Of a DNA stretch of 64,000 nucleotides, positions 149 through 40,042 are shown in pieces. The stretch is from the IMG/VR virus record IMGVR_UViG_3300043444_000502, positions 1-64,000 of that record. The stretch is one strand, 5' to 3'. Numbering within the stretch: the stretch's first letter is position 1; every line of letters begins with the position of its first letter. Source of the stretch: a virus (Duplodnaviria; Heunggongvirae; Uroviricota; Caudoviricetes). A model generated the notes under the pieces. It was given only the letters and a program-made list of their open reading frames with translations, made no database searches and was not told the origin of the DNA. The position numbers and the translations under genes are program-made.

Positions 149-155
149 CCATTTT

Positions 156-527: not shown

Positions 528-540
528 CCATTTTTAATGT

Positions 541-586: not shown

Positions 587-590
587 TTAT

Positions 591-665
591 GGTGCGGTGG
601 CCGAGTGGTCCAAGGCAACGGATTGCAAATCCGTAAAATCGTCAGTTCAAATCTGACTCGCACCT
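591..665 (+). tRNA. tRNA-Cys: tRNA-Cys(GCA)
   Basis: acceptor GGTGCGG/TCGCACC, anticodon stem ACGGA/TCCGT, loop TTGCAAA, T-arm GTCAGTTCAAATCTGAC. Confidence 0.65.
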
Positions 666-674
666 CCAAATAAT

Positions 675-747
675 GCGGCTATAGTCTAATGGATAAGGCA
701 ACGGTCTTCTACACCGTCAGATGTGGGTTCGACTCCTGCTAGCCGCG
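675..747 (+). tRNA. tRNA-Arg: tRNA-Arg(TCT)
   Basis: acceptor GCGGCTA/TAGCCGC, anticodon stem ACGGT/ACCGT, loop CTTCTAC, T-loop TTCGACT. Confidence 0.7.
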
Positions 748-770
748 CCAAATTATTTTTAGAAAAACTA

Positions 771-799
771 TGTACAAACAACTTTAGTTGTGGTATAAT
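771..799 (+). promoter_or_regulatory. sigma70-type early promoter: TGTACA-N17-(TGG)TATAAT
   Basis: -35 771-776, extended -10 791-799; upstream of tRNA-Leu. Confidence 0.55.
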
Positions 800-814
800 A
801 GATGTAAGTTAAAT

Positions 815-894
815 GCGAGTGTGGTGAAATAGGTAAACACAGGAGACTTAAAATCTCCCGCTTCGGCTTGACGGTTCGATTCCGTCCACTCGCA
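815..894 (+). tRNA. tRNA-Leu: tRNA-Leu(TAA), class II
   Basis: acceptor GCGAGTG/CACTCGC, anticodon stem GGAGA/TCTCC, loop CTTAAAA, variable arm CGCTTCGGCTTG, T-loop TTCGATT. Confidence 0.7.
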
Positions 895-903
895 CCAATT
901 AAT

Positions 904-976
904 GCACGGTTCGTCTATCGGTTTAGGACACTAGCCTTTCACGTTAGTAAGACGGGTTCGATTCCCGTACCGTGTA
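904..976 (+). tRNA. tRNA-Glu: tRNA-Glu(TTC)
   Basis: acceptor GCACGGT/ACCGTGT, anticodon stem CTAGC/GTTAG, loop CTTTCAC, T-arm ACGGGTTCGATTCCCGT. Confidence 0.7.
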
Positions 977-1099
977 CCATTAATTAGGCTCTTTGTAAGC
1001 TCAGAGACCTGATCATGTGTTATGTAACTGTAGCAATAAACCGTAATCGATCGTAAAGCGTGTTGAACTACAGCAAATAGTGCAGAGAGTCTAATTAAT

Positions 1100-1174
1100 G
1101 GTTCGTTAGTATAGTTGGCCTAATATGCTTGCCTGTCACGCAAGAGATCACGGGTTCGAATCCCGTACGGACCG
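1100..1174 (+). tRNA. tRNA-Asp: tRNA-Asp(GTC)
   Basis: acceptor GGTTCGT/ACGGACC, anticodon stem CTTGC/GCAAG, loop CTGTCAC, T-arm ACGGGTTCGAATCCCGT. Confidence 0.7.
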
Positions 1175-1184
1175 CCAAATTAAT

Positions 1185-1252
1185 CGCGGAGAGTCAGGGT
1201 AGAGGAAAGTCTCATAAGCTTCTCCTAGAAGGTTCGAATCCTTCCTCCGCAA
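1185..1252 (+). tRNA. tRNA-fMet: tRNA-Met(CAT), initiator-like (C1.A72 mismatch), short D-arm
   Basis: acceptor CGCGGAG/CTCCGCA with unpaired C1-A72, anticodon loop CTCATAA, T-arm GAAGGTTCGAATCCTTC, ends AACCA. Confidence 0.5.
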
Positions 1253-1263
1253 CCAAGTTTTAT

Positions 1264-1337
1264 TGGCCTATAGCACAGTTGGTAGTTGCGCTTGACTGTT
1301 AATCAAGATGTCCGTGGTTCGAGCCCACGTAGGCCAG
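1264..1337 (+). tRNA. tRNA-Asn: tRNA-Asn(GTT)
   Basis: acceptor TGGCCTA/TAGGCCA, anticodon stem CTTGA/TCAAG, loop CTGTTAA, T-loop TTCGAGC. Confidence 0.7.
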
Positions 1338-1412
1338 CCAATTATGTCATGACTAATCTCAGGAACTCCCGTCCACCTGAGTTAAAATAACAAAAAAACG
1401 GGGCCAAATTTT

Positions 1413-1494
1413 GGAGATGTAGGAAAACTGGTAACCCCAGCTGACTGTAAATCAGCCGCCCCTGGCACTGTGTGTTCGACTCACACCGTCTCCA
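1413..1494 (+). tRNA. tRNA-Tyr: tRNA-Tyr(GTA), long variable arm
   Basis: acceptor GGAGATG/CGTCTCC, anticodon stem GCTGA/TCAGC, loop CTGTAAA, T-arm GTGTGTTCGACTCACAC. Confidence 0.7.
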
Positions 1495-1806
1495 CCAAGT
1501 TTTGTAAGTGTTAGCAAGAGAAAGACATCATATTCGAGTAGATGGCCATCGAAAGATTTGATAAAGCAATGAGGGGCGCAATACCCTAGCAAAAAATAGA
1601 AGCATTGGTTAAGTATCCCAAGTGACGTACCGAGTCCCAGCGCGCCTTGATAAATGGGTGAATGATGCATATAACGATGGTTGCATAACTTACAAATTTA
1701 ACAGACCCCGCATTGACCGGTGTGCGTAATCACCGGTCACCATATTTAAGCATACAGTGTGTCGGCTTGCTGATAAACTTTAAGTAGAGATTGTATGCTT
1801 AAATAT

Positions 1807-1878
1807 GGTAACGTAGCAAAGAGGCCTTGCACTTTCTTCATACGGAAGCTAACGCTGGTTCGAATCCAGCCGTTACCA
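1807..1878 (+). tRNA. tRNA-Met: tRNA-Met or Ile2 (CAT), elongator type
   Basis: acceptor GGTAACG/CGTTACC, D-stem GCAA/TTGC, anticodon stem CTTTC/GGAAG, loop TTCATAC, T-arm GCTGGTTCGAATCCAGC. Confidence 0.65.
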
Positions 1879-1897
1879 CCAAGATATATAATTATTT

Positions 1898-1968
1898 GCC
1901 CTATTAGTTTAATGGTAAAACATCGGTTTTGTAATCCGAGGCTTGCAGTTCGATTCTGTGATGGGGCA
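1898..1968 (+). tRNA. tRNA-Thr: tRNA-Thr(TGT)
   Basis: acceptor GCCCTAT/ATGGGGC, D-stem GTTT/AAAC, anticodon loop TTTGTAA (4-5 bp stem), T-loop TTCGATT. Confidence 0.6.
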
Positions 1969-1977
1969 CCAACTTTT

Positions 1978-2051
<74 letters not shown>

Positions 2052-2066
2052 CCAAAATGAGGATAT

Positions 2067-2708
2067 ATGGATATTCCATTATTTGAACAATCGGTTAGAC
2101 ATATTTTATTTCCAACAAAAATTTGGGAATATCAATTAGCTAATACATCTGAACTCGATGTGTATGCACAAAAATTTATTGATATTCGCGAAAAAGAAGG
2201 TGGAGGTTTATATTCTGGATTAGGTAATTGGGTAAGTCCAGATGATTTACACTTGAGAACAGATTGGCAACCTATTAAAGATATTTTTTTAAGTAGAGTT
2301 GCTGCAGCAGTTGATGACTTAGGTATTTTGCATGAAGATCTATACGTAAATTGCATGTGGGGAAATTCTCATATAGGATCAAGTCAACATCAAGTACATC
2401 ATCATCCTAATAGTATGTTTTCTGGAGTATTTTATCTAAGTGCTCCTGAAGGTTGTGGAAATTTATTTTTTAAAGATCCACGCGGACCTTTGGCAAATAC
2501 ATATGTGTTTGACTATAAGGAAGGTTATAATAATTTTGAAATATATAGATTTAAACCGACTAAAGGAAAAATTATTATTTTCCCAAGTTGGTTAGAACAC
2601 GGCACAGAACCAGGAGATTTTGAAGGAGAAAGAATCTCTTTAAGTTTTAACGTAATGGTAAAAACTAAAATTTCTAAACGATCTATTAAATGGAATTATT
2701 ATGACTGA
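2067..2708 (+). CDS. 2OG-Fe(II) oxygenase superfamily protein (TIGR02466-like)
   Basis: motifs HHHPNS ... FPSWLEHG; paralog of 7569 and 8201 ORFs. Confidence 0.6.
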   Translation: MDIPLFEQSVRHILFPTKIWEYQLANTSELDVYAQKFIDIREKEGGGLYSGLGNWVSPDDLHLRTDWQPIKDIFLSRVAAAVDDLGILHEDLYVNCMWGNSHIGSSQHQVHHHPNSMFSGVFYLSAPEGCGNLFFKDPRGPLANTYVFDYKEGYNNFEIYRFKPTKGKIIIFPSWLEHGTEPGDFEGERISLSFNVMVKTKISKRSIKWNYYD

Positions 2709-2865
2709 AGATAAAAAGTGCACATGTGGTCGTTCATTAACTAGCAAATGTGTTGGTTGGCACGATTTAACTGAAGAAGAGTGGAAACAAAAATTGCTTC
2801 AAGCTGTTCAAGCTTTAACTGGACGTGCTAAACAACGCGAAATAGAGAGAAAGAGAAAAAAATGA
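2701..2865 (+). CDS. small hypothetical protein (54 aa, Cys-x-Cys, basic C-terminus)
   Basis: ATG/stop overlaps neighbours (ATGA junction at 2862); not in the >=60 aa track. Confidence 0.3.
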   Translation: MTEDKKCTCGRSLTSKCVGWHDLTEEEWKQKLLQAVQALTGRAKQREIERKRKK

Positions 2866-3131
2866 GTGAAGGCGGAAAAGGTAGTAAACCAAGACCATTT
2901 AGCATTTCTCAAGATGAGTATGATGCTCGATGGGATGCAATCTTTCAACGTGATATTCCTAAAGAAGAGCGAGTTAGTACTAAGATCGAAGATGGTTTCG
3001 AACTAGAAAGCTTAGATCCAGATCAACGTTCATGGTATTATGACGAATATGGTGTTAAACGTAAAAAAGAAAAAGAAGAAGTAAAAATCAAAGCGACGAT
3101 CCTTGATGTAAAGCTTAAAGGATCTATCTAA
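2862..3131 (+). CDS. hypothetical protein
   Basis: ORF track; compact packing. Confidence 0.45.
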   Translation: MSEGGKGSKPRPFSISQDEYDARWDAIFQRDIPKEERVSTKIEDGFELESLDPDQRSWYYDEYGVKRKKEKEEVKIKATILDVKLKGSI

Positions 3132-3136
3132 AACAT

Positions 3137-3209
<73 letters not shown>

Positions 3210-3220
3210 CCAACAATATT

Positions 3221-3300
3221 GCGGATGTGGCGTAATTGGTAGCCGCAACGGTCTTAGAAGCCGTCGCTTCGGCGTGTGAGTTCGAGTCTCACCATCCGCA
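3221..3300 (+). tRNA. tRNA-Leu: tRNA-Leu(TAG), class II
   Basis: acceptor GCGGATG/CATCCGC, anticodon stem ACGGT/GCCGT, loop CTTAGAA, variable arm CGCTTCGGCG, T-arm GTGAGTTCGAGTCTCAC. Confidence 0.7.
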
Positions 3301-3396
3301 CCATTAAAAATTTCCCGATAAAGCTAATCTAGTGAAAGCGCTGGTCTGAAAAGCCAGAGAGTTTGGTGCGTAACCAAATGTCGGGACCACAAATAT

Positions 3397-3469
3397 ACCC
3401 CGTTGGTGAAATGGATGATCATACAACGCTACGAACGTTGAGGTAGAGGTTCGATTCCTTTACGGGGTA
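3397..3469 (+). tRNA. tRNA-Arg: tRNA-Arg(ACG)
   Basis: acceptor ACCCCGT/ACGGGGT, anticodon stem CAACG/CGTTG, loop CTACGAA, T-arm AGAGGTTCGATTCCTTT. Confidence 0.65.
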
Positions 3470-3478
3470 CCAGTTAAT

Positions 3479-3570
3479 GCTCCTGTAGTTTAATGGTAAA
3501 ACTCCAAGCTTATACCTTGGCGATGTCTCTAGATGAGGGAATGATGTGGGTTCGAATCCCGCCGGGAGTA
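3479..3570 (+). tRNA. atypical class II tRNA, 92 nt, anticodon reads TAT (identity unclear: Ile-UAU-like anticodon on a Leu/Ser-like long-arm scaffold)
   Basis: acceptor GCTCCTG/CGGGAGT, D-stem GTTT/AAAC, anticodon stem CCAAG/CTTGG, loop CTTATAC, 25-nt variable region, T-arm GTGGGTTCGAATCCCGC, CCA encoded. Confidence 0.5.
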
Positions 3571-3574
3571 CCAA

Positions 3575-3620
3575 AGTTCTATATGTACAACATGTTAAAA
3601 ATATGGTATAATATACCTAT
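3575..3620 (+). repeat. 47-nt element AGTTCTATATGTACA(A/G)CATGT(T)AAAAATATGGTATAATATA(C)CCTAT, copy 1
   Basis: near-identical copy at 10625-10670 with three differences. Confidence 0.7.
3584..3612 (+). promoter_or_regulatory. early promoter TGTACA-N17-TGGTATAAT
   Basis: part of the 47-nt element duplicated at 10625-10670. Confidence 0.6.
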
Positions 3621-3638
3621 AATTTGAAAGGATATAAT

Positions 3639-4223
3639 ATGCAAGTGAATCTTCGTAAAGCAAATGCAATTCAAGCCGAGATCAAAAAGGCGATTAGTGG
3701 CGTGAAAACAGAAGTAAATGTATCTGTTAGTGAGTTCACTGCAGATATTTCAAAAGCTGTTGCTGATGCTGCAACAGAATTCCTAAATGCTGTGAAGCGT
3801 AAGGAACAACTTAATACAGCATTGTTCGAAATTCGAGCAGCTGTAGGACGAGCAAATGCTCAAGCTGGTGTAGGTGATCTACTTGCAGAAGTAGAACGCA
3901 TTGATGGTAAGATGAATATCATCGCAGCAGTAGCAAATGCTCAAGTAGCAAAGTCTGTAGATGAACTTAAGGCTCGCGTAGAGAAGTTGAAATCTAATAG
4001 CACTGGCGAGAATTCTCGTCTAGCGTTATATGGTGATCGTTACAGTAGTGTAGAAACAAGCGTAGTTGCACAATCTGTGATCGATCAATTCAAAGCTGAA
4101 GTTAAAACACTGAAGCGTGCCAAACAAGATCTTCAAGATAAACTCTTGAATGTGAATGTTGGAACAACCATCACTCTGTCTGCGGACACAGTGAGAGTGT
4201 TAAAAGAGGAAGGTATCCTCTAA
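3639..4223 (+). CDS. hypothetical coiled-coil protein (track start 3624; RBS AAAGGA favours ATG 3639)
   Basis: early promoter at 3584-3612; Ala/Lys/Glu-rich heptad-like sequence. Confidence 0.5.
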   Translation: MQVNLRKANAIQAEIKKAISGVKTEVNVSVSEFTADISKAVADAATEFLNAVKRKEQLNTALFEIRAAVGRANAQAGVGDLLAEVERIDGKMNIIAAVANAQVAKSVDELKARVEKLKSNSTGENSRLALYGDRYSSVETSVVAQSVIDQFKAEVKTLKRAKQDLQDKLLNVNVGTTITLSADTVRVLKEEGIL

Positions 4224-4502
4224 TTTTTCGAGAGTAAGAAGGATAGGAAGTTATTGCATTTAAGGTAAGTTGCAACATTATCGAATTTGTGCTCGATAAT
4301 GCAGGATAAGTCTTGAAAACTTATTCCGACTAATCTCCGGCCAACTCATAGTTAGTTGCTCCCATCATACTGGACGTTAAGTCATTGCTTATTGATAATG
4401 GGATCTTAATACTTTGTGGCCTGCTTATTGTAATTTGCAAATTGCAGGTTGCTGAGCGACTTATCGCATAATGGAATTGATCTCTTACTCTCACCTTCTA
4501 AT

Positions 4503-4573
4503 GCGGGATTAGTTTAGTGGTAAAACGACATCCTTCCAAGTTGTAGTTGCGAGTTCGATTCTCGCATCCCGCT
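4503..4573 (+). tRNA. tRNA-Gly: tRNA-Gly(TCC)
   Basis: acceptor GCGGGAT/ATCCCGC, D-stem GTTT/AAAC, anticodon loop CTTCCAA, T-arm GCGAGTTCGATTCTCGC. Confidence 0.7.
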
Positions 4574-4577
4574 CCAA

Positions 4578-4814
4578 TTGATTATGTACAAAATATATTT
4601 TACAAACGAATACGGTGAAGATAGATCTTATAAAGAAGACTCTTTGTCAGAAGCATTAAAAATTGCTGAAGGACTTAGACGTAATCAAAGAAATAGCTTT
4701 GTTGTAATGACATCAGAGAATCCAAATTGTGTAGGTAAACAGGGTGTTGATAGTGTTGTTGAAGGTAAACTACCTGATGGCAACGATTATGAATGGAAGA
4801 AAAGACGAAAATGA
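4578..4814 (+). CDS. hypothetical protein
   Basis: ORF directly after tRNA-Gly. Confidence 0.4.
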   Translation: MIMYKIYFTNEYGEDRSYKEDSLSEALKIAEGLRRNQRNSFVVMTSENPNCVGKQGVDSVVEGKLPDGNDYEWKKRRK

Positions 4815-4852
4815 AACGAAAACGTAAATCAGAAAAAACCCGAAAGATGATG

Positions 4853-4924
4853 GGGGGTATAACTTAACGGCTAAAGTACCTGGCTTTTAACCAGATAATC
4901 AGAGTTCGATTCTCTGTGCCCCTA
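4853..4924 (+). tRNA. tRNA-Lys: tRNA-Lys(TTT)
   Basis: acceptor GGGGGTA/TGCCCCT, D-stem ACTT/AAGT, anticodon loop CTTTTAA, T-arm CAGAGTTCGATTCTCTG. Confidence 0.65.
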
Positions 4925-5047
4925 CCAAATCATTATAAGAGAGTAGATTGACGAGAACATCATACCACTGCAATGGAACTTGTTCAAGTCGGTTTGCAGA
5001 TCGAGCGGATCTATAAATTACCGTTCAGTCTATTCCCTTATAACGAT

Positions 5048-5119
5048 GGTGTTAGTAGTGTAGTGGCTGCACACTTGTCTGTGAAACAAGTAGAGAGGGT
5101 TCGATTCCCCCTTTCACCC
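5048..5119 (+). tRNA. tRNA-His: tRNA-His(GTG) with extra 5' G(-1)
   Basis: anticodon stem CTTGT/ACAAG, loop CTGTGAA, T-loop TTCGATT; acceptor has two T.T mismatches, so ends uncertain. Confidence 0.55.
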
Positions 5120-5129
5120 CAAAGAATTT

Positions 5130-5202
5130 GCCTGGTTGCGTAGAGAGGTGATACGTCTCCCTTACAAGGAGAGCGATGTTGGTTCGAGTCCAACACCAGG
5201 TA
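5130..5202 (+). tRNA. tRNA-Val: tRNA-Val(TAC)
   Basis: acceptor GCCTGGT/ACCAGGT, anticodon stem TCTCC/GGAGA, loop CTTACAA, T-arm GTTGGTTCGAGTCCAAC. Confidence 0.7.
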
Positions 5203-5225
5203 CCAGATTTGATATATAGTAGTAT

Positions 5226-5297
5226 GCTTCTATAACATAATGGCTAATGTGGACGTCTCTAAAACGTTTTATCTGAGTTCAATTCTCAGTAGAAGCA
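5226..5297 (+). tRNA. tRNA-Sup(CTA): suppressor-type tRNA, anticodon CTA (reads UAG amber), class I
   Basis: acceptor GCTTCTA/TAGAAGC, D-stem ACAT/ATGT, anticodon stem GACGT/ACGTT, loop CTCTAAA, T-arm CTGAGTTCAATTCTCAG, CCA encoded. Confidence 0.6.
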
Positions 5298-5411
5298 CCA
5301 ATTTTTATAAGGAGAAAATCTATGAAAGCGACGCATCTCTAGATTCAAAAGCCTCCGTGATGGTTCTTGTTGTTTAAAGGAAATCATTTTAAATTTAACA
5401 AGGAAAATCAC

Positions 5412-16156: not shown

Positions 16157-16390
16157 ATGGTAAAAACGATTGGAAGAAAGATGTGTAATTGTTTATTCTG
16201 GGCTTTATGGATGAAATTCAGGTGGGGTGGACAAATCAAATGGCATAAAAGTCGTACATGGTTTGGGTTTCATAACACATGGATAAATCCTAAAGGTGTA
16301 GAATGGGAATACACATTAGAGAAAGTTAAACGACATTCAATATGGTATATTCCAATATGCTATAAAGGTGTTGTAAAGAAATTGTTGTAA
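16157..16390 (+). CDS. hypothetical Trp/Lys-rich small protein (doubtful)
   Basis: ORF track only; abuts the tmRNA. Confidence 0.25.
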   Translation: MVKTIGRKMCNCLFWALWMKFRWGGQIKWHKSRTWFGFHNTWINPKGVEWEYTLEKVKRHSIWYIPICYKGVVKKLL

Positions 16391-16391
16391 T

Positions 16392-16445
16392 CCCTTCAAA
16401 GCGAAGGACTTCTGGACGCGGGTTCGACTCCCGCCTCCTCCACCA
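16392..16445 (+). ncRNA. ssrA: tmRNA (ssrA) acceptor piece of a circularly permuted two-piece tmRNA: T-arm + 3' acceptor strand + CCA
   Basis: GGACGCGGGTTCGACTCCCGCCTCCTCCACCA matches the conserved tmRNA 3' end; CTCCTCC pairs with GGGGGAG at 16534-16540 including G3.U70. Confidence 0.8.
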
Positions 16446-16533
16446 AAAGTATACTTAAATCTGTAAAAAGATCGGGATTGGTAAGCCGGAACCTCTACTT
16501 AGTAAGTTCATTTCACCTTAGTATACTTCTGAT

Positions 16534-16723
16534 GGGGGAGCCATGGTTTCGACAGGGGTAGATAGTAGAGACGGCAACACGGTAGGCGATGACCGTAAAT
16601 CAAGCAAATAACGTAAATGCAAACGATAGCGCATACGCTTTAGCAGCCTAAGAAACTAGCTAAGCTGAGGTAACTATACCTTATAATCAAAAATAGTAAA
16701 GGCTCCTTCGGGAGCCTTTTTTT
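16534..16723 (+). ncRNA. ssrA: tmRNA (ssrA) coding piece: 5' acceptor strand GGGGGAGCCATGGTTTCGACAGGGG, tag ORF 16604-16651 encoding ANNVNANDSAYALAA-stop, 3' terminator hairpin
   Basis: conserved tmRNA 5' motif (GGGG..GGnTTCGACnGGG); tag ends YALAA + TAA; located 3' of the acceptor piece, i.e. a permuted gene order. Confidence 0.8.
16701..16723 (+). terminator. rho-independent terminator (3' end of tmRNA)
   Basis: GGCTCC-TTCG-GGAGCC + T7. Confidence 0.7.
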
Positions 16724-28510: not shown

Positions 28511-29413
28511 ATGTCTTTAGCAAATCTCAAAGCGCAACGCGCATCCTCTATCAATAAACTTGTCGCAGCAGCGGAAAAAGTAGGTGGAGGTCAACAACAA
28601 CAATCTTATGAAGACAATCGCATGTGGAAACCAGAAGTTGACAAAGCCGGTAACGGTTTTGCAGTTATTCGTTTCTTACCTGCACCTGAAGGTGATGATT
28701 ATCCATGGGCTCGTTATTGGGACCACGGTTTCCAAGGTCCTGGTGGTTGGTACATCGAAAAGTCTCTCACATCAATCGGTCAAAATGATCCAGTCGGTGA
28801 ATTGAATTCCAAACTTTGGAATAGTGGTTTAGAATCTGACAAAGATATTGCTCGTAAACAGAAGCGTCGTCTTCATTACGTATCTAATATTCTTGTTGTA
28901 TCTGATCCTGCTCATCCCGAAAATGAAGGAAAAGTTTTCCTATTCCAATATGGTAAGAAAATTTATGACAAGATGATGGATGTTATGCAACCTCAATTCC
29001 AAGATGAAGAACCTATTAATCCGTTCGATCTTTGGGAAGGTGCAAACTTCAAACTTAAGATTCGTAATGTTGAAGGTTATCGTAACTATGATAAATCAGA
29101 ATTCGACAAAGTAACAGCTGTTGCTAATGGCGATGAAGATGAACTCGAGAAGATTTATAGCAAATGTTATTCATTGAAGGAATTCACTGATCCATCTAAA
29201 TATAAATCATACGATGAATTGAAGGCAAAGTTAGAGCGTGTTCTTGGTGGTTCTGCACCTCGCACTACTGCTGAATCAATTACGCTTGATGAGTCTGCTG
29301 CTGCACCAACAGCTCGTACTGCTGCACCAAAATTTGCACCAGTCGAATCTATGGATGATAGCGGTGATGACGAAACGTTGAGTTACTTTAGCAAACTAGC
29401 TTCTGAAGCTTAA
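28511..29413 (+). CDS. gp32: gp32 single-stranded DNA-binding protein
   Basis: AVIRFLPAPEGDD, PENEGKVFLFQYGKKIYDKMMDVM, WEGANFKLKIRNVEGYRNYD and acidic C-terminus, all closely matching T4 gp32; early promoter at 28437. Confidence 0.95.
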   Translation: MSLANLKAQRASSINKLVAAAEKVGGGQQQQSYEDNRMWKPEVDKAGNGFAVIRFLPAPEGDDYPWARYWDHGFQGPGGWYIEKSLTSIGQNDPVGELNSKLWNSGLESDKDIARKQKRRLHYVSNILVVSDPAHPENEGKVFLFQYGKKIYDKMMDVMQPQFQDEEPINPFDLWEGANFKLKIRNVEGYRNYDKSEFDKVTAVANGDEDELEKIYSKCYSLKEFTDPSKYKSYDELKAKLERVLGGSAPRTTAESITLDESAAAPTARTAAPKFAPVESMDDSGDDETLSYFSKLASEA

Positions 29414-32760: not shown

Positions 32761-32926
32761 TCAACGCGAAGTAATTCGCTTCGCCTTTTTGCCGGTATTT
32801 TCAGACGATTACATTATATGGATGGAAAAATATATTTCGATCGAAGAATATAATCGTTGGATTATCGATGAAATGCATGGATACGTAGAAAGTTGGCAAG
32901 TTAAAGAACGAAAGGCTTTTGTATGA
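32723..32926 (+). CDS. hypothetical protein
   Basis: ORF track. Confidence 0.35.
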   Translation: MKWLRNKKANLGDQREVIRFAFLPVFSDDYIIWMEKYISIEEYNRWIIDEMHGYVESWQVKERKAFV

Positions 32927-33120
32927 AAGCATATATTCACACAGAGGATATTGACCGAATCAAAGCGCTGATGGAAACAGTTGATTATGATGGTAACTTT
33001 GAGATCGAGATCGATGAATCCTCAGGCATTGGAAGGACAGTCACAGTCCATGTACCATACTCAGTCAACTCTTTGCGTGGTACATTTTCTTATATTATTT
33101 CAAATGTGGAGAATTGGTAA
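32923..33120 (+). CDS. hypothetical protein
   Basis: ORF track. Confidence 0.35.
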   Translation: MKAYIHTEDIDRIKALMETVDYDGNFEIEIDESSGIGRTVTVHVPYSVNSLRGTFSYIISNVENW

Positions 33121-33629
33121 TGAGTAACTATGAAAAACACGCAATGATGGAATTCCGTGCTGCGGGATGGGTGGATGAGAATGGCAATTACATCGATGAG
33201 ATGCAAGAGATGATTTGTAAGCATGTGCTTGCATTGCTTAAAGTGTTTGATGGTGAGGGACACAGCGGATCTTCTGCACCGTATGCGATCAACCTATTCT
33301 CAAAGCTTGCTAAGTTTGATCCTGTGGTGCCACTGACTGGTGAGGATTGGGAATGGAATGAAGTAAGTGAACGAATGGGTAGTAAGTGTTGGCAAAATAA
33401 ACGATGTGGTAAGGTGTTCAAAGATGAAGATGGACGAGCATACGATATCGATGGAAAAGTTTTTTGGGAGTGGAGTGGCACCAAAGAAGATCCATTCAAG
33501 TCACACTACACATGCAGAGAGTCTCGTGTCTATGTAGATTTCCCCTACATGCCAAAGACTGAGTATGTGTATCGATACTCAGACGCCGAACCACCATGCC
33601 TTCCACAAACTGAGGAGGGTTTTCTATGA
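33114..33629 (+). CDS. hypothetical protein
   Basis: ORF track. Confidence 0.45.
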   Translation: MVMSNYEKHAMMEFRAAGWVDENGNYIDEMQEMICKHVLALLKVFDGEGHSGSSAPYAINLFSKLAKFDPVVPLTGEDWEWNEVSERMGSKCWQNKRCGKVFKDEDGRAYDIDGKVFWEWSGTKEDPFKSHYTCRESRVYVDFPYMPKTEYVYRYSDAEPPCLPQTEEGFL

Positions 33630-33789
33630 GTTACGTATTGATCGCAATGTGGTTTAATAGTGCAGGAATGCAAGTGTCAATGACTGAGGTATCATCTGCA
33701 TCGACATGTTATGAGGCTAAGGCACAAATCGAGTCATATTTTAAAGCAACAAAGGATCGTACTAACATGCAAGTGTTGTGCGTTAAAAA

Positions 33790-34128
33790 ATGAACGAAGA
33801 AGTATGTAAGCGCGAACTAAATTGGTGGGAACATTACCCACTCCATCAACTTTGGTGCAATGATTTATGTCCTCTTGTGCCACGTTTCCATTACCGTCCC
33901 AAGGATGAGTGGAATGCGACAGATTTTGGTGTGCATTGGCTTATCTTCCATGTGTGGACACTATCACACGTAAGCTTTCAGTTTGACTTGGAAATCTCGC
34001 CATCTTGTATTGGTTTTGGCTTCATTCTCCCGTATCTTCGTGTCTTTGTTGGTCCTCGTCACATGCATGGACGTGTCAACCAGTTTTTCTATAAGTACCT
34101 CACTCGTAAAGGGACTTCAGGATGGTGA
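33790..34128 (+). CDS. hypothetical Trp/His-rich protein in the GC-richer island
   Basis: ORF track; competing frames exist. Confidence 0.25.
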   Translation: MNEEVCKRELNWWEHYPLHQLWCNDLCPLVPRFHYRPKDEWNATDFGVHWLIFHVWTLSHVSFQFDLEISPSCIGFGFILPYLRVFVGPRHMHGRVNQFFYKYLTRKGTSGW

Positions 34129-34939
34129 CATTGTTATTGATGCTGAAGATCACACTCAGTTTATTCTTTACGATGGCCACAGGTGTGTTCATAGGTAATA
34201 CATTTTGGAACTATAATATCGCTATCATGCCTTGGTGGTTCAAATATTCCCTCGGGTTTGTAGCACTATCATTCTTCATTAGTCTATTCGCCTTGGTAAT
34301 GATGGGAATTTGGAGTATCCAACTATGAGGAAATGGTGTGAGAGGTGTAATAAGTATCACAATGCCGAATCCGTGGACCCCGAGAAGATCGCACGAGATC
34401 ATGCACAAGAGTTAGCTGATGAGATTGACCGTATGGTCATGGAGAAGATTAAGAATGAAAAACAAGATCGAGTACGATAACACCACATCCCTCACCCACT
34501 TCATGGATCTATTCACGATCAATAGACTCGAGAGGACTATCTACTTTGAAGAGAATTGCACGCCTCAAAATGTGCAACTTATTGAGTCATGTAAGGTAGT
34601 CATCGATCACTTGAAAGCAGTATGGGGAATAGAATGACTGAGTTCGAACAAGACTGTATCCACCATTATGGGAAGATCCTCACGGGGAAATACAAGCACT
34701 ATTGCTGTGAATGGGATTTTCTCCCGATAGATGAGACATGCCAAGAATTTTTTGCATGTGCATGTTTTGAGGATGATAAGGAATGAGATATGCAATTATG
34801 TTTGGGATACTCATCACGTTCGTGTCATGCACGCAGATCCAAGTTCATTGTCCGCACAACACAAAGTGCTATGCCACTGGGACTGTATACACATTCTGAT
34901 AATAGTCTACCGTTTTGCATGTAATACTATCTTCCTACA

Positions 34940-34992
34940 TGTACAAACCCATCCCATTTGATAGAATAGGTCCTAACAAATCAACAAAAGGA
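34940..34992 (+). promoter_or_regulatory. promoter TGTACA-N16-TAGAAT plus conserved 22-nt leader TCCTAACAAATCAACAAAAGGA
   Basis: the same module recurs at 36164-36217. Confidence 0.45.
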
Positions 34993-35000
34993 CTAAGAAA

Positions 35001-35186
35001 ATGTACGGATACCTGCAAAGCTCATATGAACAAGACTTGGAAGTAGTGAAGGCCAAACTCGCAGAGGAAGGCATCACAGTCTACACAACATACAAAGCCA
35101 ATCACTGTGTTGGCGTATCATATGGACGAGTCAGTGCATACTATATCGTTCGAAATGGAAAGGTTGTAGATGTCCAGATTGACTGA
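35001..35186 (+). CDS. hypothetical small protein
   Basis: preceded by the promoter+leader module 34940-34992. Confidence 0.35.
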   Translation: MYGYLQSSYEQDLEVVKAKLAEEGITVYTTYKANHCVGVSYGRVSAYYIVRNGKVVDVQID

Positions 35187-35249
35187 ATTCCTTGCTAAAC
35201 TCGCCTCTGACAAAGAGATCATGAACATATTGAAAAGAATGGCTAACAA

Positions 35250-35486
35250 ATGAACACTCGTACCCTCTATTCCCTCGAACTTGATATTTGTGCAGAATAT
35301 CCCTTAACTGATCTTGCTAATGACATGTCCACATACGCATTAGTATGCCAATTGATCAATGCCAATGGACCAGGAGGAGGAAACCCCGTATATCGTTTCT
35401 CATCATACAATAAAGACGACCTACTCGCCTTCGCAGAGGCATGTGGATATGAAGATGCAGAGGAATTCCTTGAGGTGACAGTATGA
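35250..35486 (+). CDS. hypothetical small protein
   Basis: ORF track. Confidence 0.3.
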   Translation: MNTRTLYSLELDICAEYPLTDLANDMSTYALVCQLINANGPGGGNPVYRFSSYNKDDLLAFAEACGYEDAEEFLEVTV

Positions 35487-35552
35487 TCACAACATTCATA
35501 CTTTCCTCTATCGTCTACATCTCAATGTTCTTCCACATGATTAAAGGACTAT

Positions 35553-35789
35553 ATGTATAACAAAAAGAAATGGGTAATCGCCTTCCCCGGTGAATTCGGT
35601 CAAGATGTACAAGAGACATGGACAGAGGACCAAATACTAAAATCGTATTGGACATATTGGGCAACAAAGATGATCGATGCGGGTAAGGGAGATCTAATAG
35701 ACAAGAAGAGATGCATCGATGATTGGGTCACAGTGCATTGGGCAATAGAATTAGATAGTAAAAACTACCAAGATTTTGGTAGTAACTGA
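35553..35789 (+). CDS. hypothetical small protein
   Basis: ORF track. Confidence 0.3.
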   Translation: MYNKKKWVIAFPGEFGQDVQETWTEDQILKSYWTYWATKMIDAGKGDLIDKKRCIDDWVTVHWAIELDSKNYQDFGSN

Positions 35790-36163
35790 GGCACGCGAAA
35801 AGGGCACATATGAATAAATGGATAGATTGGATACACGAAAATTTGTGGAATATTATTTTTGTTGTGTGGTTCCTCTCATCGGTGCTAGAATTCACGGGGT
35901 TTGTGATAGATGTGAAGCATAGTGACACAGAAACCAAAGTATCTGTAGAGACGCCGATCAAGGAACAGAAACCTAAGGCTACAGATGCTTAAAGCATCAT
36001 CAGAATCCACTCCCACGCCACCCACAGAGACCAAAGGCTTGAATTCCACCTGGTGATAAATCACCCTACATGGTGATAAACCGAAAATAGTTGAAAAATA
36101 TTTTATCCAATCCGGTCAATGACTTACACGGACGGTCTTGGATCTGGGCGACGGGAGGGCCTA

Positions 36164-36217
36164 TGTACAACTGCGAAAAATCAGTATAGAATCTATCCTA
36201 ACAAATCAACAAAAGGA
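36164..36217 (+). promoter_or_regulatory. promoter TGTACA-N17-TAGAAT plus conserved leader TCCTAACAAATCAACAAAAGGA
   Basis: duplicate of the 34940-34992 module; precedes the ATPase gene. Confidence 0.45.
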
Positions 36218-36225
36218 TTAGATAG

Positions 36226-37155
36226 ATGAAAAAAGACGTTTCGGTGATTATTAGCTTTGATAAGGCTGTTGGCAAGTTCAAATGCTCTATCAATGGTCAA
36301 AAGTTTACCACTACAAAGCAATCTTACATCGAATACATGTTCAAGCAAATCACTGGCGAAAAGGCTTCGTTTAAGGATATCGAGGCGATGCAAAAGCCTG
36401 CAGTCTCAGAGAAGTTTGGCATTAATCAGCGATTTGGCTTCGTGGAAAAGATCGTTGGAATGGTCGCCACTGGCGTTCAACCTTCTACTGTGATCACTGG
36501 TCAAGGCGGTCTCGGCAAGACATACACTGTTATGAAGCAATTGAAGGCCTCTGGTCTTGAGGACTACAATGAATTGATCCAACGCTTGCCTTCTGGTTCT
36601 ACTATTCAGATGTCCAAAGTCTTTGTTACGATCAAAGGCTATTCTACTCCTAAGGGTTTGTATCGCACTCTGTTTGAAAATCAAAATGCTACGATTGTGT
36701 TCGATGACTGTGACTCGATCCTTAAAGATCCTGTGGCCTTGAACTTGTTGAAGGGCGCCTTGGATAGTTACTCTAAGCGAATCATCTCTTGGAATTCTGA
36801 AGGTTTTGGCAAAGACGACGAATTGCCTCGTTCATTTGAGTTCAAAGGTCGTATTGTGTTCATCTCGAACATGGACCAAGACAAGATTGATCAAGCTATC
36901 CGTAGCCGTTCCATGATGATTGACTTGTCCATGACAGATGAACAGAAGATCGACCGTATGGAACACATTGCTCAGTCCGATGAATTCTTGCCTGAATACG
37001 AAGCAGACGTGAAAGCAGATGCACTTGCTTTGATCCGCGAAGTTAAGGACGAATGCAAAGAAATCTCTCTCCGTACATTGATTTCTGTTGCTAAGATTCG
37101 TGCAGCAAATCCAAAAGATTATAAGGATTTGGCTACATATGTTTTGACGAATTAA
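36226..37155 (+). CDS. P-loop AAA-type ATPase
   Basis: Walker A GQGGLGKT, Walker B IVFDDCD; preceded by the promoter+leader module 36164-36217 and palindromic operator-like sites. Confidence 0.6.
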   Translation: MKKDVSVIISFDKAVGKFKCSINGQKFTTTKQSYIEYMFKQITGEKASFKDIEAMQKPAVSEKFGINQRFGFVEKIVGMVATGVQPSTVITGQGGLGKTYTVMKQLKASGLEDYNELIQRLPSGSTIQMSKVFVTIKGYSTPKGLYRTLFENQNATIVFDDCDSILKDPVALNLLKGALDSYSKRIISWNSEGFGKDDELPRSFEFKGRIVFISNMDQDKIDQAIRSRSMMIDLSMTDEQKIDRMEHIAQSDEFLPEYEADVKADALALIREVKDECKEISLRTLISVAKIRAANPKDYKDLATYVLTN

Positions 37156-37186
37156 TTCGTCTTTTTGACTAACTAATTTGTTTATA

Positions 37187-37245
37187 GACTGGCTGGCTGT
37201 CAGTTTTCTAGAAAAACAGTAACGGACCAGCCAGTCTCTTTTATT
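37187..37245 (+). terminator. long inverted repeat / terminator-like structure after the ATPase gene
   Basis: GACTGGCTGG ... CCAGCCAGTC with nested palindrome TTTTCTAGAAAA, then T-rich. Confidence 0.4.
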
Positions 37246-37257
37246 TGGAGATAAGAA

Positions 37258-37439
37258 TGATAGACAGCAGACCAGCTACCAATCGGATGATCCGATTGAT
37301 GGATGAGGGTATACTGACACCGGAATGGGTAGCAGTCACCTGCCTAGGATACATGTCAGAGGATGATGTAGCCGATATGATGAAACAGAATGATCTATCA
37401 GATCTATTGGATGAGGACACAGACTATGAATCCGAATGA
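37258..37439 (+). CDS. hypothetical small acidic protein (track start 37245)
   Basis: ORF track. Confidence 0.3.
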
Positions 37440-37623
37440 GAGACCAAATTATCAGAACTCTATCAGATGGAATCAGTCGTATGGTGGATGGAGAAAGAGA
37501 CAAATTATCCAACAGACATTAGATGATCTACATACCCAACAGATGGACATGATAGACGCCGCAGTAGAGGTATCAGATCTGAAAGATGCAAAGGAGATTT
37601 TAGATTGGATTAGAAAGAAATAA
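37390..37623 (+). CDS. hypothetical protein
   Basis: ORF track. Confidence 0.3.
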   Translation: MIYQIYWMRTQTMNPNERPNYQNSIRWNQSYGGWRKRQIIQQTLDDLHTQQMDMIDAAVEVSDLKDAKEILDWIRKK

Positions 37624-37833
37624 AAAGGCAGAATAGTAAGGGCAGAATATTATTATAAGGTTCCATACTATTAGGTACCATCTATTGGTTACCCTTTCGG
37701 TTTAGCCGTATGCCTTCGTTTGCGTGTCCAGAAAAAAATCCCCCTGGGGCAGAATATTCCCCCAAGATGACAGTCTTCCCCAAGATGATAATAAGTAGTA
37801 TGGACACTATGTTGATTAACACAGAGGAATTAT

Positions 37834-38067
37834 ATGAGTTATATTACAGTAAATGTTGATGTGGATGTTGATCTATATGAGATTGATACAGAGGATCTAG
37901 TAGAGGAATTACAGCGGCGTGGGAAATCTGTGCCTGATAAGGATGGGATTGATCCATCAGATAATCATCTATTGGTTCAGGAGATATATCAGCTAAAACG
38001 TTTAGGGAAAGATTATAGTCGACAGTTAGATGATTTAATCTACAACGTCGTTGGTAGAATATTATAA
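37834..38067 (+). CDS. hypothetical protein
   Basis: ORF track; ends at the convergent terminator. Confidence 0.35.
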   Translation: MSYITVNVDVDVDLYEIDTEDLVEELQRRGKSVPDKDGIDPSDNHLLVQEIYQLKRLGKDYSRQLDDLIYNVVGRIL

Positions 38068-38068
38068 A

Positions 38069-38090
38069 AAAAGGGACCAATTGGTCCCTA
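38069..38090. terminator. bidirectional terminator between convergent + and - operons
   Basis: AAAAAAGGGACCAATTGGTCCCTAATTT. Confidence 0.6.
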
Positions 38091-38134
38091 ATTTATATCC
38101 CCCAAAAAAAGTCGTGGGGGTCCTCTGCCTGTTA

Positions 38135-38485
38135 TTAGATGGTCACGGTTTTCTTCACCTTAATAATAACAGTACCATATCCATCAAATACAAATCTAAA
38201 TGGATATTCTTTATACGTAGCATCAATAAAATCAATATACTTCCAATGCCCGGTGCCTGATAAGTAATAACTACCCTCTAGATCACCATTCTCAACACGA
38301 TGTACATCAACAGATTTGTTTGGCTTACATGCCCAATACATTTCTTTAATTTCAGCCGAGGATACCGTCTCTCCTGCCTCAGCTAATTCTGATAAAGCTA
38401 AATCTATAGTACCACCAGAGGAAGAACTAGCATATACTTTAATAACTGCTTCATTACCACTATTCTTTAAAACATACTTTTCCAT
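38135..38485 (-). CDS. hypothetical structural-module protein
   Basis: ORF track; last gene of the minus-strand baseplate operon. Confidence 0.45.
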   Translation of the reverse strand: MEKYVLKNSGNEAVIKVYASSSSGGTIDLALSELAEAGETVSSAEIKEMYWACKPNKSVDVHRVENGDLEGSYYLSGTGHWKYIDFIDATYKEYPFRFVFDGYGTVIIKVKKTVTI

Positions 38486-38488
38486 CTA

Positions 38489-40042
38489 TTAAGCTCCCAT
38501 AAATGCGCCACCGCGAGCGTACATATCTTCGTCATCAAACTTAGTAGTCTTAGCACCAATGACTGCAGTTGTTCCGCCCTTATTATTGTTAACAACAGTA
38601 GTACTACCAGCATTAACTGCTGCAGCACCAGCCTGTGCAATTTCTTTCCCTTTTTGCTCTGCCTGAAGATCAGCCTGTTGACCAGTTGCTTCCTTCAACA
38701 TCTCTCCAGTCTTAGGATCCAAACCTGCATATTCATACACTGAATCAGGGATAGCCTTCGCAACTAGATTAGCAGGATCATACCACTTAGCATCTGATTT
38801 TGGCTTTGGCAGAATTAAACGAAGAATCTTTTTAAAGAAACCTTGAATCCAATCACCAACAGATTTTAATTGATCCAAAGCTTTCCCAGGATCTGTAAAC
38901 AGATTAACAATGAAATCTTTAATGCCTCTAATTAAATTAAAGAATCCGTCACAAATATCACTAATAATCTGAGAGAAAGAGAATGAATCTAGAATGGCTG
39001 CAGCATTATCAAATCCAAAGAACTTCAGAATCCAACTTACACCGTCTTTTAATAAATCAAAAATAGATCCAAATAAACCAGTCAATAATCCCTTAAGACC
39101 GCCAAATACTGCTCCTAAGATCTTGTCAAGAATAGAACCCTCGGTTTTTTTCCATCCATCAATTGCACCTTGTACTGTATCCCATAATGACATAATAACC
39201 TGAATTGGCCACGCAAGTTTACCTAACAATTTACCAATTGTAGGGAAAAATTTTGCTAATGGTTTAAAGAAGTCAAAGAATTTAGATACACCTTTGAGAG
39301 CATCATCCAAAAATCCTCCGCCTCCGCCTTTGAATATGGCTAAAATAGGTTCAAACATCATACCAAATACTTTACCTAAACGGCCAAGCGTTTTAGTGAT
39401 TGTACTAAATATTCCGCCAAACATATTATCAATAAACTTAAATGCCTTTTTACCTTGATTAATAAGTTTACCGATTAGACTCTCTTCGCTAAAGAAGTTC
39501 TTAATCCAACCCCACAATTTACCAAATGTATCACCTACAACAGTTTTAACCCGCATGAATGTATTTCTAATAACATTCCATACATCTGCAATAATATTAT
39601 TGATACCTAATTTAGCTCCAATTTTCTTTAAAAATTTTGTGTAGTCTTTTACATATTGTACTACAAACGCTAAACCGCCAACAATTAAACCTCTAATAAG
39701 AGTACCAGCGAGTCCTAGCCAAGAAAATTCTCCCTTAGCTTTTTCTGGTTTCTTTTCTTCAGTCTTTGGTTTCTTCTTAATTTCCTCAAGAAGTTTTTCC
39801 ATCAAAGTTTGATGCTCTTTATCTGTTTCAAGACTTTTCATGCGCTCACCAATCATATGATCTTTGAGCGCAATTAAACCTTCAGTCATATCAGCAATAT
39901 TATTAGCAATATTATGTAATATGAAATTTTGAGCAACAACAAGTTCTCCTTGATCAGTTGCAAGTGCATTTTGTTTTTGCACTTCACTGATAAGAGCTCC
40001 AATGTTTTCCTTTGACGTTACGTACTTAGCGCCTTTACTCAT
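38489..40042 (-). CDS. tape-measure/baseplate-hub-like protein (T4 gp29-like by position): N-terminal coiled coil, then repeated Gly-rich amphipathic/TM-like segments
   Basis: 517 aa; repeated F..G..G motifs; lies between a gp48/54-family gene and the operon end. Confidence 0.45.
   Translation of the reverse strand: MSKGAKYVTSKENIGALISEVQKQNALATDQGELVVAQNFILHNIANNIADMTEGLIALKDHMIGERMKSLETDKEHQTLMEKLLEEIKKKPKTEEKKPEKAKGEFSWLGLAGTLIRGLIVGGLAFVVQYVKDYTKFLKKIGAKLGINNIIADVWNVIRNTFMRVKTVVGDTFGKLWGWIKNFFSEESLIGKLINQGKKAFKFIDNMFGGIFSTITKTLGRLGKVFGMMFEPILAIFKGGGGGFLDDALKGVSKFFDFFKPLAKFFPTIGKLLGKLAWPIQVIMSLWDTVQGAIDGWKKTEGSILDKILGAVFGGLKGLLTGLFGSIFDLLKDGVSWILKFFGFDNAAAILDSFSFSQIISDICDGFFNLIRGIKDFIVNLFTDPGKALDQLKSVGDWIQGFFKKILRLILPKPKSDAKWYDPANLVAKAIPDSVYEYAGLDPKTGEMLKEATGQQADLQAEQKGKEIAQAGAAAVNAGSTTVVNNNKGGTTAVIGAKTTKFDDEDMYARGGAFMGA

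Follow-up and report, generated by a model that had tools for sequence, protein, structure and literature searches.

Between 33.6 and 37.7 kb of a 64,000-nucleotide (nt) stretch of DNA from a virus of the Caudoviricetes (positions 1 to 64,000 of IMG/VR record IMGVR_UViG_3300043444_000502; hereafter the window), a block of small open reading frames (ORFs) surrounds a predicted AAA+ ATPase gene and two promoters that are followed by an identical leader. The initial annotation had taken this block for a GC-rich, horizontally acquired and separately regulated cassette, serving in defence or anti-defence or representing a moron. Our analysis indicates instead that the block is probably the end of a T4-type hyperplastic region, in which accessory genes stand beside an anchor gene of the NrdC.10 family, transcription is driven by an ordinary promoter class, and promoter and leader segments are exchangeable in a manner resembling the promoter-early stem-loop (PeSL) cassettes. 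The ATPase would then constitute a unit made up of promoter, 26-nt leader, coding sequence and terminator (coordinates are collected in Table 1).

The source contig is a 246-kb metagenomic sequence (Joint Genome Institute) that encodes the ATPase protein. Pfam matches identified T4 homologues along it, i.e., gp59, gp32, a gp33-like late co-activator, gp51, a gp19-type tail tube, baseplate proteins, gp2, gp53, and gp5. Among isolates, gp32 comes closest to that of Methylophilales phage Melnitz (57% amino acid (aa) identity), followed by Pelagibacter phage HTVC008M (55%) and cyanomyoviruses (~54%). A nucleotide search of positions 33000–38200 against 50,697 phage records yielded no match, so that we consider this an uncultivated aquatic T4-like phage with no close isolate. 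A transfer-messenger RNA (tmRNA) at 16333–16721 is of the betaproteobacterial, permuted type (tag peptide ANDSAYALAA), in agreement with the affinity of gp32 to phage Melnitz. Within this genome, a T4-type hyperplastic region extends from gene 32 to the tail/baseplate module, and the stretch under study is its far end.

The ATPase is a conserved anchor gene of that region and not foreign cargo. Its Walker A (GQGGLGKT, 36499–36522) and Walker B (IVFDDCD, 36694–36714) motifs, on which the gene had first been identified, are both present and invariant in 30 homologues, across which residues G92–T99, D160–D163, and R226–S229 are largely invariant. The protein matches the phrog_1250 profile (unknown function) at full length (E=2.4e-66, residues 11–307), and tblastn recovered the family in 1304 phage records, most of them from T4-type phages that infect enterobacteria, Vibrio, Acinetobacter, and Aeromonas. 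The gene annotated as nrdC.10 in Acinetobacter phage Acj61 was matched at E=8e-22 (28.7% identity, 94% of the query covered), and a search of one large protein database gave 6765 homologues at E<=1e-5. A weak AAA match of nrdC.10 had already been noted in an older comparative paper (PMC1524935). Here, Pfam AAA models scored below their cut-offs, and a sequence search of the PDB returned only RFC3 (E ~0.5). An AlphaFold2 model (predicted local distance difference test, pLDDT, 82.5) was matched by Foldseek to the AAA+ modules of clamp loader gamma, RFC, ORC, and dynein (E down to 2e-5, TM ~0.4). Since the structure search retrieved generic AAA+ folds only, no specific function is assignable; in our reading, the invariant IRSRS segment (RSRS, residues 226–229) resembles the clamp-loader SRC motif.

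Two terminator-like hairpins follow the gene. The first consists of GACGAATTAATTCGTC and a T-run (37146–37166), and the second of a long stem (37186–37237) followed by CTTTTATTT; the latter folds at −36.7 kcal/mol (37186–37246, z=−3.55). Such a strong terminator suggests that the ATPase is a transcriptionally insulated unit, and the possession of both a promoter and a terminator of its own is one of the features that speak for import of the gene.

The distribution of the ATPase among relatives runs counter to import. For this comparison, other viral contigs carry the labels L002–L152, and window coordinates are prefixed with W where needed. The ATPase is encoded by 21 viral contigs at 61–94% aa identity, which is to say by 21/21 viral-contig relatives, and in ten of these the same tail block (TMP-like protein, gp51, baseplate protein, gp19) lies directly downstream. 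In four relatives gp32 is found upstream of the ATPase at a distance of 1.8–3.8 kb, versus 6.8 kb in the window. The family is in addition present in the above 1304 phage records, including T4-type coliphages. The ATPase nucleotide identity between the window and L012 is 75%, the same as that of gp32 and the tail genes (73–77%), and this core-like divergence argues for vertical descent. The proposed horizontal acquisition of the ATPase is therefore not borne out.

The small ORFs show a different distribution, and their patchiness among relatives is a second feature in favour of import. They recur, in permuted order, only in L004, L007, and to some extent L006 and L008. A block consisting of promoter P1, ORF 35001, and ORF 35250 (W34899–35492) is 84% identical in nucleotide sequence to L007 4330–4932. 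In L007 this block precedes the homologues of ORFs 34455 and 34634, and in the window it follows these two ORFs; the homology of the transposed block begins 41 nt upstream of the −35 box. Likewise, ORF 33790 precedes the Tad3 module (see below) in L007 and follows it in the window. With a distance between gp32 and the ATPase that ranges from 1.8 to 6.8 kb and small ORFs that are patchy and reordered, the label of hyperplastic region given in the initial annotation was well chosen: the arrangement is the classical one of a T4-type hyperplastic region that ends in a conserved gene.

Base composition is the third feature that fits import. We measured a GC content of 41.3% in 33630–37700 versus 34.8% in the remaining window, with 500-nt windows at 40–44%. 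The rise first reported is thus real, while its size (42–47% against about 33%) was overstated, as 47% is never reached, and the window is equally GC-rich elsewhere (44% in the tRNA cluster at 1–2000, 41% at 24–27 kb). The whole difference sits at third codon positions: mean GC content at these positions (GC3) is 0.436 (range 0.37–0.54) in 15 consecutive plus-strand genes (32923–37623) and 0.217 in the 59 others (Mann–Whitney p=3.6e-9), i.e., it is doubled, whereas first and second positions (GC1 and GC2) are equal between the block and the other genes (p=0.96 and p=0.6). Codon-position statistics hence confirm that the region is compositionally distinct, with the amendment that the GC3 block begins at 32923, ~700 nt upstream of the start first proposed (33630).

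A high GC3 is not peculiar to the window. Among the genes compared in ten contigs of other phages, the ATPase ranks first in GC3, whether the other genes of those contigs are GC-poor or GC-rich: the values are 0.65 in L012 (gp32 0.47, gp19 0.36), 0.54 versus 0.27–0.28 in L007, and 0.74 versus 0.41–0.59 in L005. Together with the core-like divergence of the ATPase, this excess points to an old, clade-wide trait and not to a recent import. The homologues of the small ORFs in L007 and L004 also have a GC3 above that of the structural genes of those phages, and, since the homologous genes of L007 are GC3-rich too, the high-GC3 state is older than the split between the window phage and L007. We infer that the cause lies in a local mutation bias or in selection on synonymous sites, which might, for instance, adapt early genes to the tRNA pool of the host in a phage endowed with 25 tRNAs of its own. 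Considering also that the block is without a PADLOC match and that its promoters belong to a genome-wide class (see next paragraph), we regard it as improbable that the whole 33.6–37.7 kb block, including the ATPase, is a recently imported defence or anti-defence cassette, or a moron, under its own regulation.

The duplicated promoter proved exact as first described, as did the two ATG codons at 35001 and 36226, each of which is preceded at a distance of 8 nt by an AAGGA Shine–Dalgarno (SD) sequence. P1 and P2 are two members of a larger class. The pattern TGTACA-N15-18-TA..AT was detected nine times in the window, versus 1.4 ± 1.1 expected, and seven of the occurrences are intergenic and on the plus strand. 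The five intergenic copies other than P1 and P2 carry GGTATAAT as −10 box, so that the TAGAAT boxes of P1 and P2 appear to be slightly weaker variants. Orthologues of P1 are located upstream of the same gene in L007 (4371) and L004 (4532), and a promoter of the same class precedes the ATPase in L004–L013. Scanning IMG/VR for TGTACAA-N14-GGTATAAT returned at least 119 viral contigs (loci L032–L150). Flanks in 187 unique instances among the matches listed include an A-rich upstream tract, a G before TGTACAA, and a T before GGTATAAT; in the same instances, position 7 after the −10 box shows an A peak of 64%, with pyrimidines just before it (C/T at positions 5–6). This defines a consensus composed of an A-tract, G-TGTACAA, N14, TGGTATAAT, and an A at position 7 after the −10 box. 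From the A peak, transcription is predicted to start at A34975 and A36200, which would give two 26-nt leaders.

The geometry of the class agrees with expectation for a strong sigma70-type promoter whose −35 box departs from the usual sequence (TAGAAT matches at 5/6 positions; TGTACA matches TTGACA at 4/6), and host RNA polymerase most likely transcribes from these promoters early in infection. In a search of the literature we came across no relevant account of a TGTACA-type phage promoter. Given that the class occupies seven intergenic sites in the window, including one within the tRNA cluster, and recurs in at least 119 other viral contigs, it is genome-wide, and the island cannot be called separately regulated.

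The leader repeat was likewise exact as first described. The 22-mer TCCTAACAAATCAACAAAAGGA has only two copies in the window within three mismatches, with 0 expected, and is embedded in a 35-nt repeat that is 89% identical. Promoter and leader of the ATPase have different affinities among the relatives. The P2 segment (beginning 14 nt before the −35 box and ending with the −10 box) agrees with the L008/L012 type at 33/43 positions, whereas the ATPase leader agrees with the L008/L012 leader at only 10/33 positions and with the leader of window ORF 35001 at 25/33 (ungapped; 22/22 in the core). The window ATPase leader also resembles the ATPase leader of L004; those of L006/L007 and of L008–L013 belong to other leader families. 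The mosaic junction of the ATPase cassette consequently falls between the −10 box and the predicted transcription start. As to the leader of ORF 35001, its orthologue in L007 differs at 4/22 core positions and the one in L004 is unrelated, so that the identity of the two leaders is specific to the window lineage. Leaders also change genes: the GGTTCCAT... leader is located before the ATPase in L008–L013 and before a different gene at W23191, and the TCCTAAC... leader before another gene in L006 (3812). Judged indirectly, by sequence comparison, differences between relatives appear to begin or end at the cassettes, both at this mosaic junction and at block W34899–35492, which starts 41 nt before the −35 box.

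We propose that promoter cores and leaders are separable, exchangeable modules that behave like PeSL cassettes, which are described from T4-like hyperplastic regions (Arbiol et al. 2010, PMC2839356; Comeau et al. 2014, PMC4122927) as repeated composite promoter elements acting as recombination points (PMC2839356, PMC4122927). The ATPase cassette would combine the promoter core of one relative type with the leader of another, and the 22-nt identity of leaders in cassettes 1.2 kb apart most likely arose via recombination or gene conversion. As direct repeats flanking a four-ORF module, the two leaders would permit its loss, duplication, or transfer. Excision or deletion at the 22-nt repeat, if it occurs, would leave the junctions AGGTCCT...AGGATTAGATAG and CTATCCT...AGGACTAAGAAA. 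The only other contigs in which the leader was found are L002 and L003, which encode the identical ATPase protein, and L152, all with the same arrangement; to this set, scans of metagenomes and viral contigs with the 22-mer contributed a single contig, and they returned no deletion, duplication, or recombinant junctions.

The shared leader could also be explained by function, as a cis-regulatory RNA device in which a TCCT arm masks the SD sequence (AGGA) in transcripts that read through from upstream, while transcripts initiated locally remain open. In copy 1, the 5′ arm GGTCCT pairs with AGGACT (−6.2 kcal/mol), and in copy 2 CTATCCT pairs with AGGAT..ATAG (−3.2 kcal/mol). The leader would be unstructured if transcription starts 7–8 nt after the −10 box, and the copy 2 hairpin is also part of the minimum-energy fold of a longer upstream read-through context. 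The flanks of the core differ between the copies yet stay complementary (G..C in copy 1, A..T in copy 2), and relatives display CTATCC..GGATAG, ATCTATC..GATAGAT, and GTCT..AGAC. Across 19 close-clade leaders, the arm and the SD sequence of the same leader were more complementary than mismatched combinations (permutation P=0.0002; P=0.0008 for 13 representatives); these leaders are related by descent, and the permutation test therefore overstates their independence. For 125 unique leaders of the class from a broad set of viral contigs, the difference between own and mismatched pairs was gone (P=0.19). Moreover, the hairpins are weak with 14-nt loops, the pyrimidines before the start and the AGGA of the SD sequence are complementary for independent reasons, and no Rfam match was obtained. 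Because arm/SD pairing is not general in the 125 leaders, we retain such a translational gate as an unlikely alternative, although one that is somewhat better placed than import of the block. Within the same explanation, the 22-mer might instead serve a translational repressor or a small RNA as a shared operator. A more elaborate combination would have a portable cassette of core, arm, and leader acting as a translational gate, with parts swapped at the junction of −10 box and start, and with the high GC3 reflecting immediate-early tuning to the host tRNA pool before the 25 tRNAs of the phage become available; we rate this composite as improbable too, on a par with import.

The spacer in front of the ATPase had been thought to carry operator-like sites, i.e., a perfect palindrome and a repeated half-site TGGTGATAAA; as operators, these would bind a regulator of the ATPase promoter. 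The inverted repeat GGTGATAAATCACC (36052–36065) has 6-nt arms around a non-palindromic AA and is not a perfect 14-mer; in a first-order Markov simulation of the spacer sequence, an inverted repeat of that size is expected in a 233-nt spacer with P ~0.21, and the island holds ten of them versus 6.3 ± 3.1 expected. The repeated half-site is real, namely a direct repeat at 36048–36060 and 36068–36080 with 12/13 matches, a 10-nt exact core, and a 20-nt spacing. Its proposed meaning as an operator fares less well, as a 10-nt direct repeat within 40 nt has P ~0.2 in the island. The co-occurrence of an inverted and a direct repeat 20 nt apart in a 233-nt non-coding spacer would suit an operator, as would the second copy, CATGGTGATAAAC, which is the only one common to L004 and is found there at the equivalent place. 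Both repeats are at chance level nonetheless, and they are located ~100–110 nt upstream of the −35 box and not over the promoter. A local insertion of ~17–20 nt, probably a tandem duplication, seems to have given rise to the first copy, because L004–L007 and L013 have a gap at that point. The motif is also absent from L008–L013, which have the most similar promoter core, and is without meaningful recurrence elsewhere in the window. As the repeats do not exceed chance, we rejected the operator explanation, which we consider highly improbable.

The fold of the spacer (35985–36230) was not significant on either strand (z ~−1.5), so that a structured RNA in the spacer is not supported. A conserved spacer sequence, CCCAGATCCAAGCACTCCCGTGCAAGTCTATGATTCTATTGGAC, occurs once per locus ~40–140 nt upstream of the ATPase promoter in L004–L013; in L008, L010, and L012 it is situated between a canonical terminator and the promoter. 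The window carries a diverged version at 36100–36160, part of which (CTTGGATCTGGG, ~36139–36150) is apparently inverted.

Several observations weigh against the reconstruction that we favour. No natural variant without the 1.2-kb module, or with the module doubled, was found among the contigs carrying the leader, and the 22/22 identity could be a chance remnant of common ancestry, for which a rough estimate at ~82% orthologous-leader identity is 0.82^22, or ~1%. PeSL elements are characterised by a neighbouring or overlapping stem-loop, often GGGG...CCCC, that works as terminator or attenuator, and by the excision of mini-circles. As compared to them, both window cassettes are without the G-tract/C-tract stem-loop: the stems predicted at the cassettes comprise weak arm/SD hairpins and, in P1, a weak stem that covers the −35 box, and G-tract/C-tract stems occur only at ~37729–37775 and 38094–38120. 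The sequence upstream of P2 is GC-rich (gacgggagggccta) and not AT-rich as in PeSL; upstream of P1 it is moderately AT-rich, and the class overall has an A-rich upstream tract. The activity, timing, and start sites of the promoters are predictions from consensus and spacing, and the TGTACA −35 box could be the site of a phage-encoded factor and not of the host sigma. With regard to composition, the nrdC.10 gene of Acinetobacter phage Acj61 has a GC3 of 0.20 versus 0.32–0.49 in its neighbours, which rules out, at least by this example, a high GC3 as a general property of the NrdC.10 family. Genes behind other promoters of the same class in the window have a GC3 of only 0.24–0.38, so that early expression alone cannot explain the value of 0.44 in the block. 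Finally, the island is 80–87% identical in nucleotide sequence to L007, versus 70% for structural genes; this difference is a further feature in favour of import and is compatible with lateral exchange of small-ORF modules.

Table 1 Features of the hyperplastic end and its surroundings, in window coordinates.
Feature	Position	Strand	Remarks
Intergenic promoters of the TGTACA class	771, 3584, 10634, 23191, 25919, 34940, 36164	+	771 inside tRNA cluster
Gene 32	28511–29413		left bound of hyperplastic region
Small ORF	32923–33120	+	65 aa; first gene of GC3-rich block, GC3 0.38
Tad3-family protein (predicted)	33114–33629	+	171 aa; Pfam PF25185
Six tightly packed small ORFs (from ORF list)	33626–34786	+	33626–33793, 33790–34128, 34122–34328, 34325–34480, 34455–34637, 34634–34786; GC3 0.38–0.54
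Promoter P1 (predicted)	34940–34967	+	TGTACA 34940–34945, 16-nt spacer, TAGAAT 34962–34967
Leader repeat, copy 1	34961–34995	+	exact 22-nt core 34971–34992, AAGGA at 3′ end
Four-ORF module between leader copies	35001–35992	+	35001–35186, 35250–35486, 35553–35789, 35810–35992
Non-coding spacer	35993–36163	+	GGTGAT-AA-ATCACC inverted repeat and direct repeat
Promoter P2, ATPase (predicted)	36164–36192	+	TGTACA 36164–36169, 17-nt spacer, TAGAAT 36187–36192
Leader repeat, copy 2	36186–36220	+	exact 22-nt core 36196–36217
AAA+ ATPase, T4 NrdC.10 family	36226–37155	+	309 aa; phrog_1250
Two terminator-like hairpins	37146–37246	+	after ATPase
Two small ORFs	37257–37439, 37426–37623	+	last genes of GC3-rich block; patchy in relatives
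Conserved non-coding element, ~70 nt	37656–37725	+	starts with GGTTCCATA
Last plus-strand small ORF	37834–38067	+	end of early-type cluster
Bidirectional terminator	38072–38089		where plus-strand early-type cluster meets minus-strand tail genes
Tail/baseplate block	starts 38135	−	opposite to small early-type genes

At the left edge of the block, ORF 33114–33629 is predicted to encode an anti-Thoeris protein of the Tad3 family. It matches PF25185 at E=3.6e-37 (127.2 bits, cut-off 27; profile positions 1–113 of 119), has 91% aa identity to its homologue in L007 and 82% to that in L004, and ends exactly where the island had been thought to begin (33630). Tad3 is reported to act against type I Thoeris by binding the TIR protein ThsB (PMC13402655, PMC13243611). 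The small ORF directly upstream, ORF 32923, always holds this place (89% aa identity to L007, 69% to L004), and the two genes form a conserved module in L004 and L007. A gene of this kind at the edge of the block is a further argument for import, and it lends substance to the anti-defence content once suspected; the ATPase is without a PADLOC match. PADLOC defence models applied to ten proteins (the ATPase and its neighbours) at E<=0.01 gave no matches, nor did NCBIfam.

The six tightly packed small ORFs that follow are 54–90% conserved as proteins in L007 and/or L004, in a different order, and received no assignment from Pfam, PHROG functions, or PADLOC. ORFs 34455–34637 and 34634–34786 are 90% identical in aa sequence to L007, and ORF 34122–34328 is hydrophobic, possibly membrane-bound, and 67% identical to L004. 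These last three ORFs are skipped by the contig's own gene calls and look real. In the four-ORF module, the last two ORFs (35553 and 35810) are distributed among relatives unlike the first two. Apart from the Tad3 homologue, none of the small ORFs could be given a function. The frames had seemed to compete in this region; they are arranged head to tail, overlapping briefly at starts and stops, and the majority have conserved protein counterparts in L004 and L007.

Downstream of the ATPase, the ~70-nt non-coding element reads TAAGGTTCCATA...ACCATCTATTGGTTACCCTTTCGG... and begins with a motif, GGTTCCATA, that follows the −10 box in other promoters of the clade. It is 84–89% identical in nucleotide sequence in L005 (2590–2649), L012 (5735–5799), and L013 (3690–3755), where the ATPase coding sequence is only 75–78% identical, and it was detected in six further viral contigs, including L025, L027, and L031, always at a distance of a few hundred nt behind the ATPase. 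Spaced TAAGG(T/G)NCC-like repeats precede the element, and GGGG/CCCC stem-loops follow it. The element itself showed neither a stable fold (z ~0) nor covariation, and it had no match in Rfam. Three copies of the 9-mer ATCTATTGG are found within 600 nt (37402–37410, 37680–37688, 37967–37975), one of them in the conserved non-coding element and two inside small ORFs (repeat families D10 and D19). At gathering threshold, Rfam identified only tRNAs and the tmRNA in the whole window, all outside 33000–38500, and a search of 33000–38500 at E<=1 had no matches. The window holds 25 tRNA genes (cluster at 62–5300) plus the tmRNA. The tRNA at 5226–5300, inside this cluster, has the anticodon CTA and would read the amber stop codon (labelled "Pyl" by ARAGORN; Rfam tRNA score 63.5 bits). 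Since the long ORFs of the window are readable with the standard code, stop-codon recoding is not evident in the window.

The main value of these results is a correct annotation, by which an apparent foreign ATPase island becomes a normal accessory-gene region of a T4-like phage. A Tad3-family gene in a freshwater or marine T4-like phage far from isolates would widen the known range of this inhibitor, and the small ORFs next to it are candidates for other counter-defence functions. The promoter consensus is widespread in uncultivated aquatic phages and could improve the annotation of early genes. The promoter/leader mosaic would add comparative support for PeSL-type recombination from a clade remote from coliphages and vibriophages.

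Among known systems, Tad3 is approached closely by the window ORF, which scores far above the Pfam cut-off over almost the entire profile. The window protein, a predicted inhibitor, differs in its length, with ~50 C-terminal residues beyond the Pfam domain in a total of 171 aa. With T4 NrdC.10, the ATPase shares a full-length profile match, the Walker motifs, the AAA+ fold, and, in the window as in Acj61, a neighbourhood of small hypothetical genes. It differs in its location between gene 32 and the tail module instead of the nrdC-tk region, and in the high GC3 of the aquatic clade, which the Acj61 gene does not have. To lambdoid morons, a moron having been one option of the initial annotation, the ATPase is similar as a single gene that has its own promoter and terminator, and to that extent the comparison stands. 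It breaks down on sporadic occurrence, as the ATPase is carried by 21/21 relatives, in ten of them at the same position, and on orientation, since the gene is transcribed in the same direction as its neighbours.

In T4 genes e, soc, 49, and I-TevI, the ribosome-binding site is masked in read-through transcripts, and the promoter is located inside the sequestering hairpin. The predicted hairpins of the window cassettes would be alike in that the SD sequence lies in the 3′ arm and the 5′ arm falls between the −10 box and the predicted start. They are much weaker, however, the promoters are of an early and not a late type, and covariation is limited to the close clade.

A further parallel is with the PeSL cassettes. 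These differ from the window cassettes in their −35 box (TTGACA instead of TGTACA(A)), and the two window copies share only a short homology (exact over 22 nt, 89% over 35 nt). As in PeSL, the window cassettes are intergenic in a hyperplastic region and consist of a promoter, predicted to be sigma70-like, followed by an SD sequence and a start codon. They are also repeated in the genome, flank small ORFs of unknown function, and form direct repeats around a gene module. Mapping placed the crossovers of PeSL elements between the −10 box and the SD/ATG, and homology of <50 bp is enough for recombination in T4 (PMC2839356); by sequence comparison, the mosaic junction of the window falls at the very place where these crossovers were mapped.

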